This document shows positions 10,501-52,500 of a DNA stretch of 64,000 nt, in pieces. The translations under genes and the position numbers were made by a program. Positions within the stretch are counted from its first letter, which is position 1; every line of letters starts with the position of its first letter. The stretch comes from Callorhinchus milii. Its lineage: Eukaryota. Location of the stretch: contig NW_024704742.1 of NCBI RefSeq assembly GCF_018977255.1, positions 42,224,001 to 42,288,000 on the forward strand, read 5' to 3'. Under the pieces are notes generated by a model. That model did no database searches, was not told the origin of the DNA, and worked only from the letters and a program-made list of their open reading frames with translations.

Positions 10501-13500
10501 CCATGAAGTGAATGACCAATTTTATTGGGAGGGTTGTTGGTCTGGACACCAAGAGAAATTGCCTTCTCTCCCTTTTGAATAGTGTAATGGGATCCTTAAT
10601 GTCCAGTTGAAAAGACAGATGAGAATCTGATCCGAAATAATGAGATAATGGACATTTTAAAGAGTTTAGGTGACCTACAGCCTGTACAGGAAGGTAATCG
10701 AGGGGTATCAGTGCAGACTGAGCCTAAGGGTGCCTATCACACACTCCCTTGGTTTCAGCACTCAAGACTCTACCCCATTTGAAGGGAGCTATATAAATGC
10801 AAGTTTTTTTTGCTGTAAACCATTTGCAATACGCTTTTGCCATTTTACAGCCAGACCAGCAGGTGGAGTATTTTGTTGAAACAGCATGTTCTAGTAAGAG
10901 GGAGGTCCCAGTTAAATGTTGGCCAGACATGGAGCTCCATTGGCAGTGACCATGGAGAAGGAAATAAAAGGCAGTTCTGTAGGAACAAAGCCAGAGGGTT
11001 TTAAGAATATACATTTCAGGCAGAAAAATAACAGGATGTCAAAGAGCAGCAGGAACAGGCAAAGCACTTCCACCTGCAAAGGAGTTAAACTCTCTCCTTG
11101 GCAACAAACTTTATGGCTGTCTTAAGTGAGATTTTGCAAACCAAAACATCTTATAGTTTTGTACTGAGGTTGTATGTTTAGTGACAGGTACCTTTTTTTC
11201 CTGACAGGTTGCTGAATGCCAATAAAATAAACTGCCTGCGTGTGGATGCCTTTCAGGATCTCCATAACCTGAACCTTCTCTCTCTGTATGACAACAAGTT
11301 ACAAACTATTGCCAAAGGAACCTTTGCCCCTCTGCGAGCCATCCAGACTCTGTATGTATTCTCGGTTATTCATGAAGTGAATGATGCTAATTTGTTTTTC
11401 AATTTACTTACGTTTAGGGTCTGGGTTAGGGAGGGGGATACCAGCCAACATTCTTGTTGAACATCGCTCTCCAGTGGCTGTTGCTAGAAAGTTGCCTTGG
11501 GTGGACTCAGAAGGATAACCTGTGCTTTGATTTCCTTCCATGGTTGGACTGGACAGACTGTTGATATTCCATGTTCACATGTGATTTGGGACAGGAAGGT
11601 GGCCATTGCAAGTGGAACCGTACTGCAGCTTCAGTCACTCCCCATCTTGAGTCAAGACATATATCTTTGACAGCACTTCTTGTTATTTTTCCCCTCCTCA
11701 CCTCCTTTGGCTCACAACCTAAGTCAAGTGCTCAGCCAGCAGTGTCAAAGGCGTTGAGACATACTCCTGACAGGAAAGGCATTATATAAATTGTATTATT
11801 GGATTTAAATGTACTCACTCCTCCTGAAGAGGGATGGAAGAAAACTGGAGGAAATATAATTGAATTGAATTTCCCTGGGCCATGTCACTGTGTCTCATTC
11901 AGCACTCCAAGCAAGACAGCTCTTGCGCCATCCAGTAATGAGGTTCATGAGCAGCCATGGGAGCAAGTCGCTGTTCATGAATAGCATAGTGTGAATCATT
12001 GCGAGTGGAGACCCACATCCTGACTCAATTGTAATGGAGCACAGAGATACATTTAATTGGCGCAAGATGCGTTCAGCTAGGCCTAAGAAAATAAGTTTAG
12101 ACTCAGTGATGGATGTTTGGAACATACAGCCAGATGGGATTGGAGTCTCAAAAACATTAAAGACATTAAAACTGAAGCTGGATGCTGTATTTGGTGAGCT
12201 ATATTAGTAGAAGAATGAGTGTTAGTGGCTAAATGGCCTTTCATCGACTCTTAACATCGCTTATGTCTTTTATAGCAATTTACAGCACAGGAGACCATTT
12301 GACCCTTCAGGTCTGCACTTTGCCGAGGTCCTAGTGTTTGATCAAATGACATTATTTTAAGAATGAATAACTACAAATTAAATGCATACATCCCGAGACA
12401 TAACACCACTCCTCCACACTGAGCGCATTATCGGATTTCCTTCAGTTTCGTAAAGTCACTTGTTAAAAGGCTCATTTCCCATAGTTACCAGCAGTGCTCT
12501 GAAACCTGCTGCATCAGTGTATCTGATAAGCAAATGCTCTTCCAGCCAGAGCTTGCATTAAATAATTCAAGCATTGTCGTCTTGCCATGGCTCGTCAACC
12601 TGGGGGATTGGCCGTTTCAAAGTGGACACTCACAGTTACTGGGTCCGTTGCCAACTTGCACATTGTAGATTCTTAATGTTTCATCAGACTCCCAATAAAT
12701 GCATGTCAGCTGCAAATAGCAATCGTCAACATTGCCCAGATCCACCCGTTCCCAGTGAGTTACACCGGTTTCCTTTCAGGAGCCCCCAGCACTGCTGTTT
12801 CATATTTGTTCCAGCGTGCGCCTTATGTTCCTGGTTGACTTGACCCTGTGTCTACTTTATTTGCTTCTATTCCTCTCAAAAGGCATTTGGCGCAGAATCC
12901 GTTCATTTGTGACTGCCACTTGAAGTGGCTTGCCGACTACCTGCACGCAAACCCCATTGAAACCAGTGGTGCCCGCTGCACCAGCCCTCGCCGCCTGGCA
13001 AACAAGAGGATCGGGCAGATCAAAAGCAAGAAGTTCCGCTGCTCAGGTAATTGAATTCCGGCAACTTCGTTATTCTAGAAATGTGTGTTTTTTTTTAAAA
13101 AAAGAGCTCTCTTGGCATGCTGCTGATCTCACGTGGATTCTGAAAATGTGTCTGTTTTGCTGTTGAATTATTAAGGTTCTCAGCAGCTTTTCCCCTTTGT
13201 TTCTGACTCCGTGCTAACCATAGTAGGTCAGTCAAGTTCAATTTGACTTTGCCTTTTATTTTGCTGCTGTTGACAAGACAATAATGGAGTAATCTGTGGA
13301 TTTAATACAAAGTAAATTGTTTCTTTTTTTCTGGCCGCTAACATTCAGGTGCATCTCTTCTGTCTTTCTCTCTTTTGTTGTGTTTATAGCGAAAGAACAG
13401 TATTTCATTCCAGGTAGGTTTTCCTGCAGTGGGGCTGATGAGCTATGGATTTCCCTTAGGCTTTAGTGGAGTGTTGCATGCTGTAGTTGTGCAGTGAATC

Positions 13501-16500
13501 TCCCTTTAGACGGTCCCTTGCTTAGTCTTCCAGTAGCTGAATCTGTTGCATGTGCTCTTTTAGCTACCTAGCCAAATCCTTAAGTCTCCATGCTTCCTAA
13601 GCCTGCTATACAGTTGCCAATATGATGGGGTTCCTTTTATTCTCATTTTACTTTCTTGACACTCCCCCACCTAGGGACTTTTTTTTAATATTGATGTGTT
13701 CCCCAGTCTTCTTTGTTTGACTGGGGAACTTTCATGTATATTACACACATGTATGTACACATACACACAGATGTGGGAATACCAATATTTGAAACTGGAA
13801 GAAAGAGCAGGTGCTGCCCTTGGTTCACAGTTTTCCTCTCTAGTGGTTCGGAAAGGGCAAGGGGAGCTACTGGCCCTGCGATAGTTGCAACAAGTCAGTT
13901 TGATGCTTGAACAATCCTGTGGGTTTGAAACACACAAATATGTAGTGGTGGGCAAATTGAAATAAGGGTTTGCAGCCCTGAAAACAGGTAGAAATTCATG
14001 CTCGCCCAATCTCTTCAATCCTCTGACCTGCTCTGAGGCCTCTGCTATGGTTCTCTGAACCAGACACTTGATTGCACTGCTAGTTATCTGCCCTTTGCAT
14101 CTCCACGTTCGCCTCTGCTTTTTCCTTCTACAGGCTGAGATTGGAAACTTGCCCTTTAGTGAATCAACCTGTCACCGTAGAATTATAATTTCATAGAAAT
14201 TGACAAGATAGAAGAAGGCCGTTTGGCCCATTGTGTCTGTGCTGGCTACTTCAAGAGCAATCCTTTCAGTCCCATTTACTTACTTTTCCCCCATACTTCT
14301 GTAATTGACTCCTTTTACATATTTATCTAGTTCCCTTTTGAAAGCCAATCTGGATTTTTCCTCAATCCCCAATCCCGGTAGGGTGTTCCATATCCTAACT
14401 TCTCTGTATGTGAAAAAAAATCTCCTAACCTCCCCATTCGCTCATTTGCTAACTATCTTAAATTGATGCCCTCTTGTCACTGACTCCCTGTCCAGTGGAA
14501 ATAATTTCTGCCGATCAAAATCCATCAGAATTATAATGACCTCTATCAGATCACCTCTCAACCATCGTTATTCCAACAGAAAAAGTCCCAGTTCCTCTAG
14601 TCTCTCTTTTATCAACTCCTCTATTTCCTTGACATCCTTCCTAAAGTTGGTTGACCAATACTGCACGCAATATTCTTACTGTTCTCTAACTAATAATTTC
14701 TATCCATTTAGCATTACCTCTTTGCTTTTGTATTCTATACCCCTATTTACAAAACCTACACAACCTTTGAGGCTCATTTTCTGGTGACAAAATGGCAGAA
14801 TCGCTTCTGTTTTCCTGAGGAGGGCTTTCTCATCCCTACTGTGATAGGAGTTTACCAGATGCGTTGTTACAGAAAGAAGAGGCACTGACCAGGGCTGGGA
14901 GTATTCAGTCACTTTGAATTCCAAAAACTGATTCAAAAGATGAATGGTTGCCAAAAAGTTCCACCTTTAAAGAATTTTTTAAACATTGCAGGGGGTTGGT
15001 GGGGGGAGGTTGGGGTGTATGAAAATGATCCATCTTCATATTTTTGGCAACAGTGTAGCTGTGCTAGTGAAGTGTAATTCTGTTACTGCTCTAGCTAATG
15101 AAGATTAGATTGTTCCCAGCAGACAATTTGATCTGAATAGACCAGCTAATCTTCATGTCCATTAATAAACGATGATGTGTGGTGTGTGTGTTGTGTGAAT
15201 ATGAGTAGTGCATATCACTAATATGCTTGTGTGCCGGTATGAATGCAGAATGAGCATATTCTGACCTAACACAGAGTGGAGCTGCACTAAGAGTAAATCC
15301 CTAAGTACGGTCGAGATTGATTGCAGGAACTGTTTTGACTGTTTTTCAAGTTTTAAGCCTTGGTTTCCCAGAGTATTTGACAAATATGTCAAGTGAATGA
15401 AATATTTAACGTGTCCAACAGCAGGCTGCAGGCATTTTTTTTATAGCCAGAGGCAGTCCGAGTGAATACTGAAGCTCTTTTGATGTGCTTTGGTACAAAA
15501 TCCATGAAGTGGCCTCCCTTGTGTTTACCATCATTAGCTGTAAACACCCATTGCTCATGTACAATGTAAGGTTCTTGAAAGTGGTGCCACAGTCCAGTGC
15601 CTTTAGGGTTATAGATCAGGCAATAATTAAGGGTTTATTCCCAGATATCCCACACCAGCAGGGAACACTTGCCTGGCACTCTGTAACTTGTCGCTGGGAG
15701 TTGTCAAGAACCTTGCCTGACAGACAAGTGTTGCCCAGTGTTCAGTGCATCTTCACAATCGTACTGTACACAGGTGGGGTCGGATCCAGGTTAGTGCAGT
15801 ATTGCATTGTCTAAGTGCTTCCTAGTGAAAGTTATTTGAGCCAAGGATCTCTTCTATTCAGCCAAATTGACAACTGCTGCCCTGCAAGAATCTTAACACA
15901 AGTTTGGATTGGCTTCTTTGCTTTCCTGACTATAAATGCAATCGCTTTCTCTTTCTTTTTCTCTATCTTCCTCTCTCTCTGTCCCTTCTGCACTTTACTT
16001 TTTGCAGGAATTCACCATTTTGGCTGTAAGTACAACTGAGATCTTTATTCCCCACCTCTGGCACTGATTTCTCTTTCCCTCCAGTTGTTTTTCCCCTATA
16101 TGTACTGAGCTTGATCCTTCACCCATCATTCCTCACCTCTTCTCCTGGCAGTTCTCAACAAATCATCCAAGCCTCAGTAACAGTACCCCTACCCACCCCA
16201 GTACCATTCACGTGACCTCTCCCTGTTTTGTTAGCAGTGATACCAAGCACCAAGCTGGGGCACTTGATCTTAGAAAGAACTTCTCTTTCATTTAGGCATG
16301 TTTACTGCTTGTGTGTAGGGTACATTCTCAGTAGCTGTTACACTGTCCATTGTTACTGAGTCTGAAAAGCAATGTTTTGGCTGTGAATACCAGTGCTTTA
16401 GTACCCTTGACCCCTAATGCTACACCCTCTACCATTTAAATGCTGTGCCTTCTTTCCCGTAATATTTCCCCTCACACTTTTACCTGGCCTAGCTGATGCG

Positions 16501-37500: not shown

Positions 37501-40500
37501 GATTGGAAGCCAGTGGAGTCTCAGGCTTGTTTGCGTTCTGGTCAAGGGTGTAATTATACCCCACAAAATAAATATCAAATATCAATTAACTGGATCTAAA
37601 TGAACTAAAGAACATTCTTGTCCCTACAGGGCCCTTGGAGCAAACCCTCTCTACTGTGACTGTAAAATGCAGTGGTTGTCTGACTGGGTGAAGTCTGGCT
37701 ACAAGGAGCCAGGCATTGCTCGCTGTGCAGGACCTGGTGACATGACAGATAAGCTCCTGCTCACAACCCCGTCTAAGAAGTTTGAATGTCAAGGTATTGC
37801 CATCAATTCTTCACACTCTCTCTGCACCAAAGACATCTTTGTATCAATGCGAGGAATTAAACCAGCAATGTCTAACATAGTTTATCTATCCAATCAGTTA
37901 GCAGTAATCAGTTATTAGTGTAATGGCGAACTTTGATTTTAACTCCCAAAGAGAGCTTTATGTAACCTTTAATTACCCTTTGACTTTCTTTCTTTGCCTT
38001 TTCTTGTGTGTAATCTAATACTCTTTAATCTTTCACTTGCGACCTCTGTCACCCCATTCCCTGCCTATAGAGATTCCAGGGCCTTGCGGGTTTTTGGTGC
38101 CAGGTAAGCCAACCGAGCAGCCCTTGGCAATGATGGATGGTGTTAAACGGACCTTCTGCCTCTCCTTAAATGTGACCCAAAACAATTACCTCAATCCCTC
38201 CAGCAGATATGTTTTCCCTAGACTAGCAGTGTCGGGTTTGGAGAGAATGTACAGTTTTCACACTTTCAGTCCTTGACCTCTGCCTTCAAACACAAGCTGT
38301 GTGTGGGCTTAAGCCTAGGATGAGTGATGATTGTGGAGCGTTGTGTATGTCTTGAAAGTTGTATTACTTCTGTGTACACTTTGAAGTTTAATTATAATTA
38401 AGAACAAAACAATTTTTTGTGGATTTCAGACTATTTTTTAACAATGGGGCCAGTGATGCCTGTTTAACACAAAAAATCTCTGTATGCATCACTATGCCGT
38501 TTACCAGCAATTGTCCATTTGTAACCCTTCTTGACACTTTAAGAAAGTAATCTGCAGAAAATTCACAAAATGAAACAGTAAAAAAGGTTAATATTTACCT
38601 CATCCTTGTAAAGCGCTCTGGTTCCTGATACTTGTGCTTTGCACCACACCTGCAGAATGGTGCAAAAAAAAAGTATGCGAGCCAACACTTGTAATTGTTT
38701 ATTTCACTTCATTTTGTTTGTGGGACATTGCTGTGCACAAATTGGTTGTTGCAATTGGCTGCAAAACACACAATGATAGTAAATTTTTGAAATCCATTGA
38801 GACGTTCTTCTGGTGTGAAAGGTGCTATATCAACTGCAAGGGTTATTATTATAATTTCTGCCCAAATGTTGCTTGTCAAACATCAGGTGACTTCAGGTTT
38901 TTTGGGGTTTGTATCCTACACCACAATTTGGATTTAGCAATTTTTTTAGTTTTGATTGACCCAAACTATGCTAACGTGTGGTGAAAAACAAACGATGGGG
39001 GAGCAGTGCACTAACACAAAATAGTCTTGTGATTATGTTGGCAATTCAATGAGTTCCACGTTTCCTAACCATTTCCTATTACTAACCCATAATGTAAAAC
39101 TCACTTGACTTACACAATTTATTTTACTTTTTAAAGGTCCGGTTGACATTGGTATTCTGGCCAAATGTAACCCTTGCTTTTCGAACCCATGCAAAAATGA
39201 TGGAACTTGCTCCAATGATCCTGTGGATTTCTACAGGTGCACCTGTCCTTATGGATACAAGGTATGTTTGTCACTTGAAATGGAGCAATCTGTGTTCTGC
39301 GATTATGTATGGTGTGCTAGCCATACATCCATAACTTATCATCTGGGAAAGTGCTGTGTGCAGGATTCAGGATTTGCATTTATAAGTTACTTTAAAATAA
39401 AATCATAGGAAAGTGCTCTTTCTACACCCAAAGAAGACAGATGATTAGATATAATCTGACGAAGGGCCTTGGACCCGAAACGTTGACTCACTTTCCTTTC
39501 TCCATAGATGCTGCCTGACCTGCTGAGTGTTCCCAGCGACTTCTTTTTTGAATTAGATATAAATATATTGCTTGCACATGCTGCCTGGTCCTAGAACTCC
39601 CAAGATCGCTGCTTTCTAATTATGCAATGAGATCTTCAGCGTCCACCTGCACAGGCAGACGAGAACTCATTTTAAGCTCTTTTCCACAAGATAGAACCTC
39701 CGACAATGCAGCACATCCCCAGCACAGCATTGGAACATCAGCATAGACCAACTGGTGACCCACGGGCCACACCCGGCCTCCTCTTGCTCCATTTCATCTG
39801 GTCCACCCACTCCCTCCATAACCCGTAAATGTTATGTTTCTGGAAGGGAAACACAAACATATTACTTATACAGCCTATGGACGTTTCTCAACTAGGCCAT
39901 CTTGCCAGCCACGCACATGCACACGAGAATATGCTTCCCTTACTCCGGTCGTTTGATTGGGATTATTGTGAATCAAAGGAAAAGTACGAACATCAAAATT
40001 AACAGGAAGCAAAAGCCACTAGTCTTCCAGGATGATAGAGAAAATCTTGGAACAATAGTAGACTAATAAACTGGCCCATTTCTGTTTGCTAGTTACATTT
40101 TCCAAAATGTGAAATCTTACGTATTTTCAACAAATAGTTTTTGTTGAAAGCCAATAGTTTTTGTTGAAAGCCATTGCATTCTGAGCCATGAGCCAAACTG
40201 CATTTTCGAGTCCAGGCTTGCACCTGCAACATGCTATTTGTTTCCTTCCACCCACTCACTCTGGCACGTGTATACACTGAAAGCACAGTGTGGTGTCTAT
40301 CACCGGTTACAAAAGGCTTCTGTAAACACAATCTTCAGCAGAGCACTGTGCAGGGCAGGCAGTAAACTGATGGCATTTCCAGACAATATTATTTTTATTA
40401 TTGTTGTTCCAGACATTATTATTATTATCATTCCAGTCAAGAATGATTGTATGCAACTGTAACAATAACCCGAAAGGCCTGAAAACTTAAATAAATATTT

Positions 40501-49500: not shown

Positions 49501-52500
49501 ACCATTGAAGCCAGGCGAGGGTAGGGATGTTAGGGTCACGGAGCCTGGTGCGGAAGAGGACATGACCTGCAGAGTTCTGAATCATCTGCAGCTTGTGGAG
49601 GAAGTTGGGGAGGCCGACAACCAGGGAGTTGACGTAGTCGAGCCTTGATGTATAAATAATTGCATGGATGAGAGTTTTGGTGGCCTGAGGTGTGAGGCAG
49701 TGACAGAGCCGGGCGATGTTGCGGAGGTGGGGGAAGGCAGAGCGGGTTATGGCACAGATGTGGGTAGAAAGGACAGTTGAACGTCAAACAAGATGCCAAG
49801 GTTCCGGACTGGCTCAGTGAGATGGAGTGTGCATCCTTGGATGGTGAAATTTCAAAGTTGAATTCAACAACCTGCCAAATTTTGGATGCTCTAAAATGCT
49901 AGATAAATACAGTGGATCTAAGACCCACTGGAATTTCTCCCAATTTCTCCCCAGATAAAACATTTATCTGTTTAGTTCCATTCTCTAGCTTCTCCAATAC
50001 ACTTTTATATTTTTCCTTCTGTATATTTATTTAATTCACTCCTAAAATCTAATAAGGATTCTGCCTCCAACCACTGTTCCAGGAAGGGCTTTCCAATCAC
50101 ATTACCCACTGAACAGGTTGTTAAATAAAGGAAAATAGTTGTTGATCTACACCAAGGTGGTGGTTTAAATGGATGCTGTGACCCATGGGGGATTTGGCAA
50201 AGCTAACGGAGGGACATCAGCGATAGGAGGAAACAGTGTAGAATAGTAATACGACAAGAGAATGGAATTGCATAGGACGGATTTGCATGAAAACCAAGAA
50301 CAATTATTGAGCTGATACTTTCTCTGCTGCATTGTACTGTTGCAATGTTTTGAAAAGAGTAAACTCAGAAAATCTCTTGTTTCTTCTGTCTCTTGTCACT
50401 CCAAGCTGCTAATCTGAATGAGGTGGAAAAAGGTCAGTTGCAGTCTGTTTCTCCCCTTTTGTCCTTCCATCCTGCTGTTAGACAAGGACCATTTTTGTTT
50501 CTCTCTTGTGCCTGTCACCCGCTTGTTCCTTGGAAATGAGGTGCATGTTTTATTTTTCTCTCCCTCCCCCACCCCAACGCTCACACTTACAGTAAATTTA
50601 CTTTCTTATTATTTCAGCACCACACTGGTGATAGGGATAGGGACATGCAGGTCAAGCTACAGTCCTCCAAATTAAAAGCCCTCTTCATGTTTCAGTGTGA
50701 AAAATAAAATGCAGGTTCAGATACAACTAATCTCTCGGTCCATCGGCCAGTGAAAAGCTGTGTCCTTGTGTTGCCGGAGTCCAAAATAAGATTATTGCAA
50801 GCTCGAAAGTCAAAGAACTTTAATTGTGACTTAAGGTTCCAGAATGAAGTTAAGGTGTAAACCCTCGACAGCCCAGCGCCTTGGGTTGTCCTCACGACGT
50901 AAAAGGCACTATGTAAATGCAATTTGTTGTTGTTAAAATTACGGGTAAAGATTTGCCAAAAATCTTTGATCCCGGAGGCTGGGGAAGGCAACTCCTAGAG
51001 TCAGGGTTTAGCTCTTGCCATGTTTCTAGCCAAAAAAAGCCTGAAAGGTCTGAGAAAAGGTCTGAAATGAAGCAGAGCCACTAGATCTTATTTCCCAGTC
51101 TTTGCGATCACATTTTTTTTGTGCAACAGCTTTAGAGGATCCGTTAACAATTTCATTCACAATCCGTAAATCACAGTGACTTCTGGTTTCTGCCTATCAC
51201 ATTTTCAACCTCATTAGCTCATTGGTACAGAGAAATGATTGCCCTTTGTCGCCATACCAGTCTCTATCTAACTATCCTATTTTTAACACAGAGAAAGAAA
51301 TAATGTGATTTTTACAGAGCCTTATCACATCGAATGGATACAAAATGCCTTACCTTCAAGCAAAGCGACTGATTTTGTAGGTAAACTGACATCTGTACGT
51401 TCCCTTTATCACTCAGTTGAATTGAAGGATATTATTGAAATAATAAGATTGGTTGAAAAATAGGAAAATGAGCATACTAGTGAGAGGATACATAAAACGA
51501 AAGAACAGAAAGAAGTCTTAAGTGATATCCACAGAGTCAGGGCTTGGACATTTTTGTGTTTAACCTATATTACTGACATCGGAGGTGGGGGGATGTGCTA
51601 CGGAGGCAAAAAAAATTAAACTTCAGATAGAAGCTGAATGCGGTATTGATTAAGGTAGGATTATGGTGGAATGAAACACCTTTTCTTGTCCTTCACTTTC
51701 CATTGTACTTGCTGTGTAGCTTTGTAGCACTCTGCTATTGAGGCAGGGCATTTTATTATAGGTGTGAGATCTTGAACAATTTGGTGTGTCACTTAATGGG
51801 GCCTCTGGTGAGTTCTGTGTCACTTTGATTCATCTAGTTAAGAATAGTACATTTCAACTCTAGCACCATGAATTGGCAAAAGTAAGATAAATAATGCAAT
51901 TATCAGAAAACTGGAAAGCAGTAAGATGCATAATCACCACCATTCTGCAGAAAGGAAATCTCTGCGGTAAGATTCATGGTATAATTACAGCATACCCAGT
52001 AGAAACAAAACATTACAATAAAAAAACAGAGTACACCTCTGGAGGGGCAGTAAAGGATTGAAATATACATGAAATTCTCTTTTCCATTAACAGCAACTGT
52101 ATTGAAATTGGTTGATTAATGTGGCTGACACTCGTAAGAGAGTGCAGTATTGCAGGAATGGAAATCTGCACCTCTGCAACCAAGATAAGCTTTTGAAGCT
52201 TAATCCTTAACATTTACACCCATAGATGCTGGCAACTAGGCCTTCCAGGGGAGATAAACTAGCAAATGAATAGTCACTCAGTGGGAATGTTGGAATTGGA
52301 CACATAACAGAGCCTAAGGTTAGCTGTATAACATGCAGTTATACACAGAAACTGGCCACCAGTGACATTGTGGGTCTTTTTGCACGATTGACTGGTCTCC
52401 AATGCCAGAGTCCTATTCTCTTACATTCCACATATTGGTCTACATGGGGTCAAAAATAGGTTAGTGCTGTAAAAGGTACGTTTGAATAACCACAGTATAC

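Follow-up and report, generated by a model that had tools for sequence, protein, structure and literature searches.

The slit2 locus and a 33-nt cassette exon

The stretch of Callorhinchus milii DNA considered here (the window: 64,000 nucleotides (nt) of contig NW_024704742.1, assembly GCF_018977255.1, positions 42,224,001 to 42,288,000) carries slit2 on its forward (+) strand, and a tblastn exon map places in it approximately residues 337 to 1251 of a shark Slit2 probe. The intron between the exon for the C-terminal cap (LRRCT) of the leucine-rich repeat domain D4 and the exon for EGF1 is 1.3 kb long. At 38071..38103 (+ strand), it contains a cassette exon of 33 nt that is phase 1-1, free of stop codons, and encodes 11 residues including one cysteine (Cys). 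We found that this cassette is a genuine, optionally used, and deeply conserved slit2 exon common to jawed vertebrates. A preliminary description of this DNA, made from the sequence, had proposed an undescribed Cys-containing microexon at the D4-EGF1 junction. Every coordinate and signal that it gave for the 33-nt, phase 1-1, stop-free cassette was verified. The word "undescribed" does not hold, as RefSeq or other gene models of 15 or more species already include the orthologous exon, and the exon as an object is not a new discovery.

Both flanking exons are constitutive parts of slit2. The D4 cap exon (37630..37793, + strand) ends with ...KKFECQ plus one base, G (phase 1). Its translation is 100% identical to five Callorhinchus milii Slit2 entries and matches residues 132-184 of the human Slit2 D4 structure (PDB 2wfh_A, E 1.6e-30), and RNA contigs cover it in all four of the sequencing runs considered below. 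The EGF1 exon (39137..39261, + strand) encodes the linker (G-PVDIG...) followed by EGF1. The insertion point of the cassette is after the last Cys-Gln of D4 and ahead of the Gly-Pro-Val-Asp linker to EGF1.

The acceptor AG of the cassette (cctatAG, 38069..38070, + strand) is preceded by an AG-free, pyrimidine-rich zone of 113 nt (37956..38068, + strand). Pyrimidines make up 73% of this zone and 80% of its final 20 nt, and the nearest AGs on its 5' side are at 37950, 37952, and 37954. The zone includes a CTAAT branch-like motif (38015-38019), five TCTT motifs (37987-38029), and TGC at 37995, 38038, and 38062, the last of these (38062-38064) being 8 nt before the exon; no TGCATG was found near the cassette. 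The donor GTAAGC (38104..38109, + strand), in the context CAG/GTAAGC, matches CAGGTAAGT at eight of nine positions. Both sites are seen in the sequence; in RNA run X1, the donor is spliced to 39137, and the fit of two short contigs to the genome begins at the acceptor AG. Within the exon, an internal AG (38078-79) would yield an in-frame 24-nt form (GPCGFLVP).

We note that the splice pattern by itself is not beyond chance, because the same intron holds 39 comparable candidates (AG...GT-bounded, phase 1-1, stop-free, 9-60 nt) and the equivalent slit3 intron of the same genome holds 28. Of the 39, the cassette ranks first by its donor, with eight of nine positions matching, and by its pyrimidine tract (0.8), and the surrounding 111 nt are single-copy in the 0.99-Gb assembly. 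What raises the cassette above chance is the presence of orthologous inserts in other species, together with the RNA joint.

Conservation of the insert across jawed vertebrates

An 11-residue insert occurred at the same junction in 17 of the 239 slit2-like proteins retrieved, and its carriers were taxonomically diverse: sawfish, catshark, seven teleosts, three frogs, two birds, and one monkey. This tally combines 12 of 185 proteins with three of 14 members of a chondrichthyan cluster, Xenopus laevis X1, and Leptodactylus X1. The insert peptides follow the pattern x-[IVL]-P-G-P-C-G-F-[LP]-[VI]-[PA], to which the window peptide conforms. They also share a junction context, which is found in the window as well: each stands after F-x-C-x, with the last Cys of the D4 cap, and before G-P-[VI]-D...C-N-P-C. 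The window peptide is identical to the inserts of two sawfish isoforms and the túngara frog (P0284, P0288, and P0122). Across 16 orthologues, P3, G4, and C6 were invariant (16/16 each) and P5 and G7 were each kept in 15, with conservative changes elsewhere. Among the variants, pike X4 and X12 have DVPGPCGLLVP and the proboscis-monkey model (Nasalis, P0127) has GLPGPCGFLIP.

Exactly 11 extra residues were present in 14 of the 17 proteins; the models of the other three (two stickleback, one thrush) extend further upstream, and the thrush model shows the same peptide behind retained intron sequence. Of the 120 top-ranking long proteins in a search with the D4 exon, the plain 10-residue linker was present in 113 and a clean insert in three (cichlid X8, a goby, and zebrafish X15). 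A search with the cichlid junction region separated the two forms: its 12 best matches (E <= 3.4e-15) were all insert-bearing, and the next match (E 2.6e-11) was without the insert. This search added túngara frog X1, pike X4 and X12, Astyanax X2, blue jay, the proboscis-monkey model, and the two stickleback models.

Conservation extends to other cartilaginous fishes, as the preliminary description had anticipated for a real exon. Fourteen members of a 90%-identity cluster of shark and ray Slit2 proteins span the junction, and three of these have the insert: Pristis pectinata X4 and X6, both identical to the window, and Scyliorhinus canicula X2 (EIPGPCSFLVP). Annotated orthologues such as those of Pristis pectinata X4 (XP_051893373.1), Scyliorhinus canicula X2 (XP_038647427.1), Engystomops pustulosus X1 (XP_071982122.1), Xenopus laevis X1 (XP_041444146.1), and Danio rerio X15 (XP_021331538.1) agree with the cassette in gene, junction, and length, and their peptides are the same (sawfish and túngara frog) or nearly so. 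Nothing structural distinguishes the cassette from these annotated exons, which are simply missing from the C. milii models: none of the seven C. milii isoforms returned by protein searches (P0003-P0007, P0300, and P0301) contains the insert. The suggestion that the microexon had been kept in slit2 of this lineage was too narrow, as the insert is found across jawed vertebrates; among lamprey isoforms, it was present in none of 15. A literature search found no paper on the 33-nt slit2 exon.

Other odd inserts between D4 and EGF1 are present in Ensembl-derived slit2 models, namely GDLWFSC in carp (P0103/P0145), GTVLW in painted turtle (P0143), and GNW in Anabas (P0110). These may represent a second tiny alternative exon, alternative splice sites, or model errors, and they have no counterpart in the window. 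An ALWF reading at 38616 was considered as such a counterpart and rejected, having no usable frame or donor.

Use of the exon in RNA

Assembled contigs from four runs (X1, X2, X3, and X5, from three studies and out of 13 listed) were mapped on 37600-39300. Of the listed runs, none was on record as RNA and eight were labeled so by guess; the four mapped runs hold cDNA, as their contigs are spliced at GT..AG. The joint that skips the cassette (37793->39137) was present in all four, in contigs with depths of 116, 44, 24, and 30. In run X1, one contig joins 38103->39137 (listed as 38101->39135, 'GT..AG', cut +2), with a depth of 7.6 compared with 116 for the skip contig. Two further short contigs from this run, of 55 and 61 letters, fit the genome exactly on 38069-38105 only, which corresponds to the exon plus two letters on each side that are common to the intron and the neighboring exon, and their flanking letters do not fit the intron. 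Both exon boundaries are therefore supported, and an internal acceptor at 38080 is disfavored. The 24-nt form that had been raised as an alternative does have its in-frame internal AG, but it is used by none of the 17 annotated inserts, and the short contigs fit the genome from 38069, not 38078.

Of the two junctions that had been put forward as a check, 38103->39137 was thus recovered in run X1, but 37793->38071 was not listed as a joint; RNA of this organism thus documents use of the donor, with the acceptor joint implied. No inclusion joint was seen in runs X2, X3, and X5; contigs drop rare variants, so absence of the isoform from these samples is not implied. Unspliced contigs over the exon were present in runs X1 and X2 (38076-38576 and 37880-38176). 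Contig depths are not convertible to inclusion levels, and we interpret these data qualitatively: the exon-containing form is a minor product in one of four samples, and most of the transcripts sampled skip the exon.

Paralogues slit1 and slit3

Inserts of this kind were found in none of the 37 Slit3-like and none of the 65 Slit1-like proteins retrieved. The Slit3-like set, which does not include human SLIT3, comprised 34 proteins with a plain 10-residue linker, one with eight residues, and two that were cut short. The slit3 D4-EGF1 intron of the same genome (~1 kb) contained no PGxCG or LWF reading and no blastn-short match to the cassette longer than 10 nt. The parallel that had been drawn with an optional Cys-containing insert of human SLIT3 at the same junction therefore found no support in these proteins or in this intron. 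The slit1 D4 exon was not among the seven matches in the assembly search.

The slit3 paralogue is at locus L008 (G000:C13:11517800-11527799) and is 100% identical to C. milii Slit3. After its D4 exon, the genomic sequence reads G-EPLSVSVLAKC, whereas the linker of the UniRef isoform P0187 is shorter (GIVSVLAK), pointing either to the use of another acceptor or to an error in the model.

Regulation and other small exons of slit2

A long AG-exclusion zone, a TCTT tract, and a TGC near the 3' splice site are typical of neural exons that are repressed by PTBP and enhanced by SRRM4 or related factors. The cassette has all three features, and these motifs suggest that it may be under neural, SRRM4-type regulation. 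Microexons regulated by nSR100, also named SRRM4, are reported to be enriched for an upstream TGC in the vicinity of the 3' splice site (PMC4387716). The cassette has this element (TGC, 38062-38064); its length lies outside the 3-27 nt range of that class.

A 27-nt microexon in the window (50406-50432, + strand; AANLNEVEK), inside an EGF repeat, matches the nSR100/SRRM4-dependent Slit2 microexon of mouse (MmuEX0043693), which is 27 nt long and is reported to extend the fifth EGF domain by nine residues (PMC4387716). It shares with the cassette its gene, frame preservation, phase 1-1, and a TGC near the 3' splice site. It differs in its EGF repeat site, its length, the absence of Cys, and a dependence on SRRM4 that is shown in mouse; in addition, an insert like it is annotated in lamprey, where the 33-nt insert was present in none of 15 isoforms.

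Another small exon of the gene is an 18-nt microexon in the linker between D2 and D3 (16008-16025, + strand; cag/GAATTCACCATTTTGGCT/gtaagt, phase 1-1), which adds IHHFG and a Cys whose codon is completed by the last T of the exon with the next exon. The corresponding peptide [IV]HH[FL]GC is annotated in catshark, sawfish, manta, sawshark, two frogs, blue jay, and two lizards, with IHHINKC in zebrafish; it is in none of the seven C. milii isoforms. Like the cassette, this exon belongs to slit2, is phase 1-1, directly follows an LRR C-terminal cap, and adds one Cys, but it lies in another linker, encodes an unrelated peptide, and has its Cys codon split by the splice junction. The D2-D3 linker also contains a 24-nt slit2 exon (13390-13413, + strand; AKEQYFIP), present in three of the seven C. 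milii isoforms.

Among the receptors of Slit, Robo1 and Robo2 have a NOVA-regulated alternative microexon, 6b (PMC12308364). Both 6b and the cassette are small, conserved alternative exons in one signaling pathway, and 6b tunes the strength of repulsion. The two differ in that 6b belongs to a receptor rather than the ligand, is unrelated in sequence, and has a regulator and function that are shown, compared with inferred here. PMC12358039 describes a 'Slit2 exon 31' as Elavl2-activated; we could not match it with any one of the four small exons.

Cysteine number, the D4 dimer, and possible function of the insert

The insert directly follows the Cys that closes the second disulfide of the D4 cap, which is Cys865-Cys907 in human numbering (PMC2693880). 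As the preliminary description stated, D4 is the dimerization domain of Slit (PDB 2wfh; PMC2693880). The crystal dimer is antiparallel, with an interface built from the concave faces and overall dimensions of about 30 x 60 x 70 A (PMC2693880). The exon appears to add one Cys to an even set, based on counts of 106 versus 107 in the sequence that follows the signal peptide: a shark protein with neither Cys microexon (P0283) has 106, and a sawfish protein with the insert only (P0284) has 107. P0295 has 108 and P0290, with both Cys microexons, has 110, and each of these counts includes two signal-peptide Cys. Consistent with this pattern, the catshark isoform with both the insert and the 18-nt IHHFGC exon has two Cys more than the isoform with neither. 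An AlphaFold2 model of 300 residues of sawfish Slit2 (D4-insert-EGF1-EGF2, 44-row alignment) had a mean predicted local distance difference test (pLDDT) score of 75.6; most of the D4 cap scored under 50 and the insert about 49-61, and the model is too poor to settle anything.

We consider it very likely that the cassette is the orthologue of a conserved, frame-preserving, alternative slit2 exon, and the reading we prefer is that it yields an isoform under regulation whose hinge is longer and bears a single reactive thiol. Inclusion inserts 11 residues between the D4 cap and the EGF1 linker, predicting a longer D4-EGF hinge stiffened by Pro and Gly. The AG-exclusion zone, TCTT tract, TGC, and near-consensus donor would fit inclusion regulated in particular cell types. 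The insert would carry one unpaired thiol, which most likely forms a disulfide that is impossible in the common isoform. Candidate partners are a further Slit2 chain, a matrix or receptor molecule, and the Cys of the other Cys microexon. The expected outcome would be an altered architecture or oligomeric state of Slit2, rather than altered Robo binding by D2.

Several observations weigh against this interpretation. Most of the insert-bearing proteins are computational gene models whose exon combinations were not observed, and the mammalian evidence is one model annotated as a 'hypothetical protein' (Nasalis, P0127). In the RNA data, inclusion was seen in one of four runs and as one low-depth contig, the 37793->38071 joint is implied only by where the fit of the short contigs begins, and the runs were called RNA by guess, with tissues given as codes. 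Neural or SRRM4 regulation is suggested by motifs only. At 33 nt, the cassette is among what PMC4387716 classes as 'longer exons' (above 27 nt), and the only Slit2 exon listed in the mouse nSR100-knockout table of that study (supplement file 3) is the 27-nt one. Finally, the unpaired Cys is deduced by counting across species and assumes cleavage of the signal peptide.

The low inclusion in a single run, the absence of the exon from all seven isoforms of the species, and the abundance of AG...GT open mini-frames in both the slit2 (39) and slit3 (28) introns count in favor of a chance pseudo-exon or functionless splicing noise. We regard this explanation as extremely improbable, given the same peptide and junction in sharks, frogs, birds, and a monkey, three invariant positions, a window peptide identical to that of sawfish and of a frog, and a donor that is used in RNA. 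A different possibility accepts a real conserved exon that just lengthens or stiffens the D4-EGF hinge, or forms a docking peptide, with its Cys paired within the chain. The Pro/Gly-rich composition of the insert (PGP...P/VP) fits this idea, and a partner for the Cys may be available, either through reshuffling with the linker Cys before EGF1 or from the 18-nt D2-D3 microexon, a second conserved exon that is present in the window and adds a linker Cys ([IV]HH[FL]GC). Isoform models with both microexons keep an even Cys count (P0290). Yet the 18-nt exon is present in six of 11 insert-bearing rows of alignment A1 and absent from five, predicted co-occurrence is not equivalent to co-splicing, and the AlphaFold2 model is unreliable here; we view this hinge reading as possible, though on balance unlikely.

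The preliminary description had raised a covalent lock, in which the insert Cys bonds the same Cys of the partner chain in the D4-mediated Slit2 homodimer. The position of the insert, directly after the homodimerization domain, is suggestive, as is a Cys that is invariant in 16 of 16 orthologues and turns an even Cys count odd. We nonetheless find such a lock distinctly unlikely. The D4 dimer is antiparallel (PMC2693880), from which we infer that the C-termini leave at opposite ends, far apart, making a covalent lock doubtful; the Cys follows the last Cys of D4 by just six residues and would be hard to bring together with its counterpart. Multiple mutations failed to disrupt the D4 dimer (PMC2693880), so a covalent lock also seems unnecessary.

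Going beyond the orthologous, thiol-bearing isoform that we favor, the two ancient microexons (18 nt and 33 nt), each contributing exactly one Cys to an otherwise even number and included together or apart, could constitute a splicing-controlled disulfide switch. This idea is speculative and we consider it improbable. If true, the switch would, depending on cell type, reshape the LRR region or create cross-links between Slit2 chains or from Slit2 to matrix partners, and would change the range or strength of Slit-Robo signaling.

Slit2 is a central cue in axon guidance and cell migration. To our knowledge, work on Slit2 isoforms has centered on proteolytic fragments and one SRRM4-dependent microexon. 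The cassette adjoins the dimerization domain and shifts the Cys parity of the protein, and an exon with an invariant Cys has been retained since the split of cartilaginous and bony vertebrates, which argues that the isoform does something selectable. For biology, we see this as a testable functional hypothesis of modest interest, rather than a discovery. For annotation, there is a small practical point, in that the C. milii slit2 models considered here lack an exon that the models of its relatives have.

Downstream of the cassette in the same intron, a region of the window at 38683-38853 (+ strand) showed very high summed contig depth, up to ~7000 in run X2. Many contigs exit this region on both sides with dissimilar letters, as would fit an interspersed repeat present in multiple copies and transcribed at other loci.

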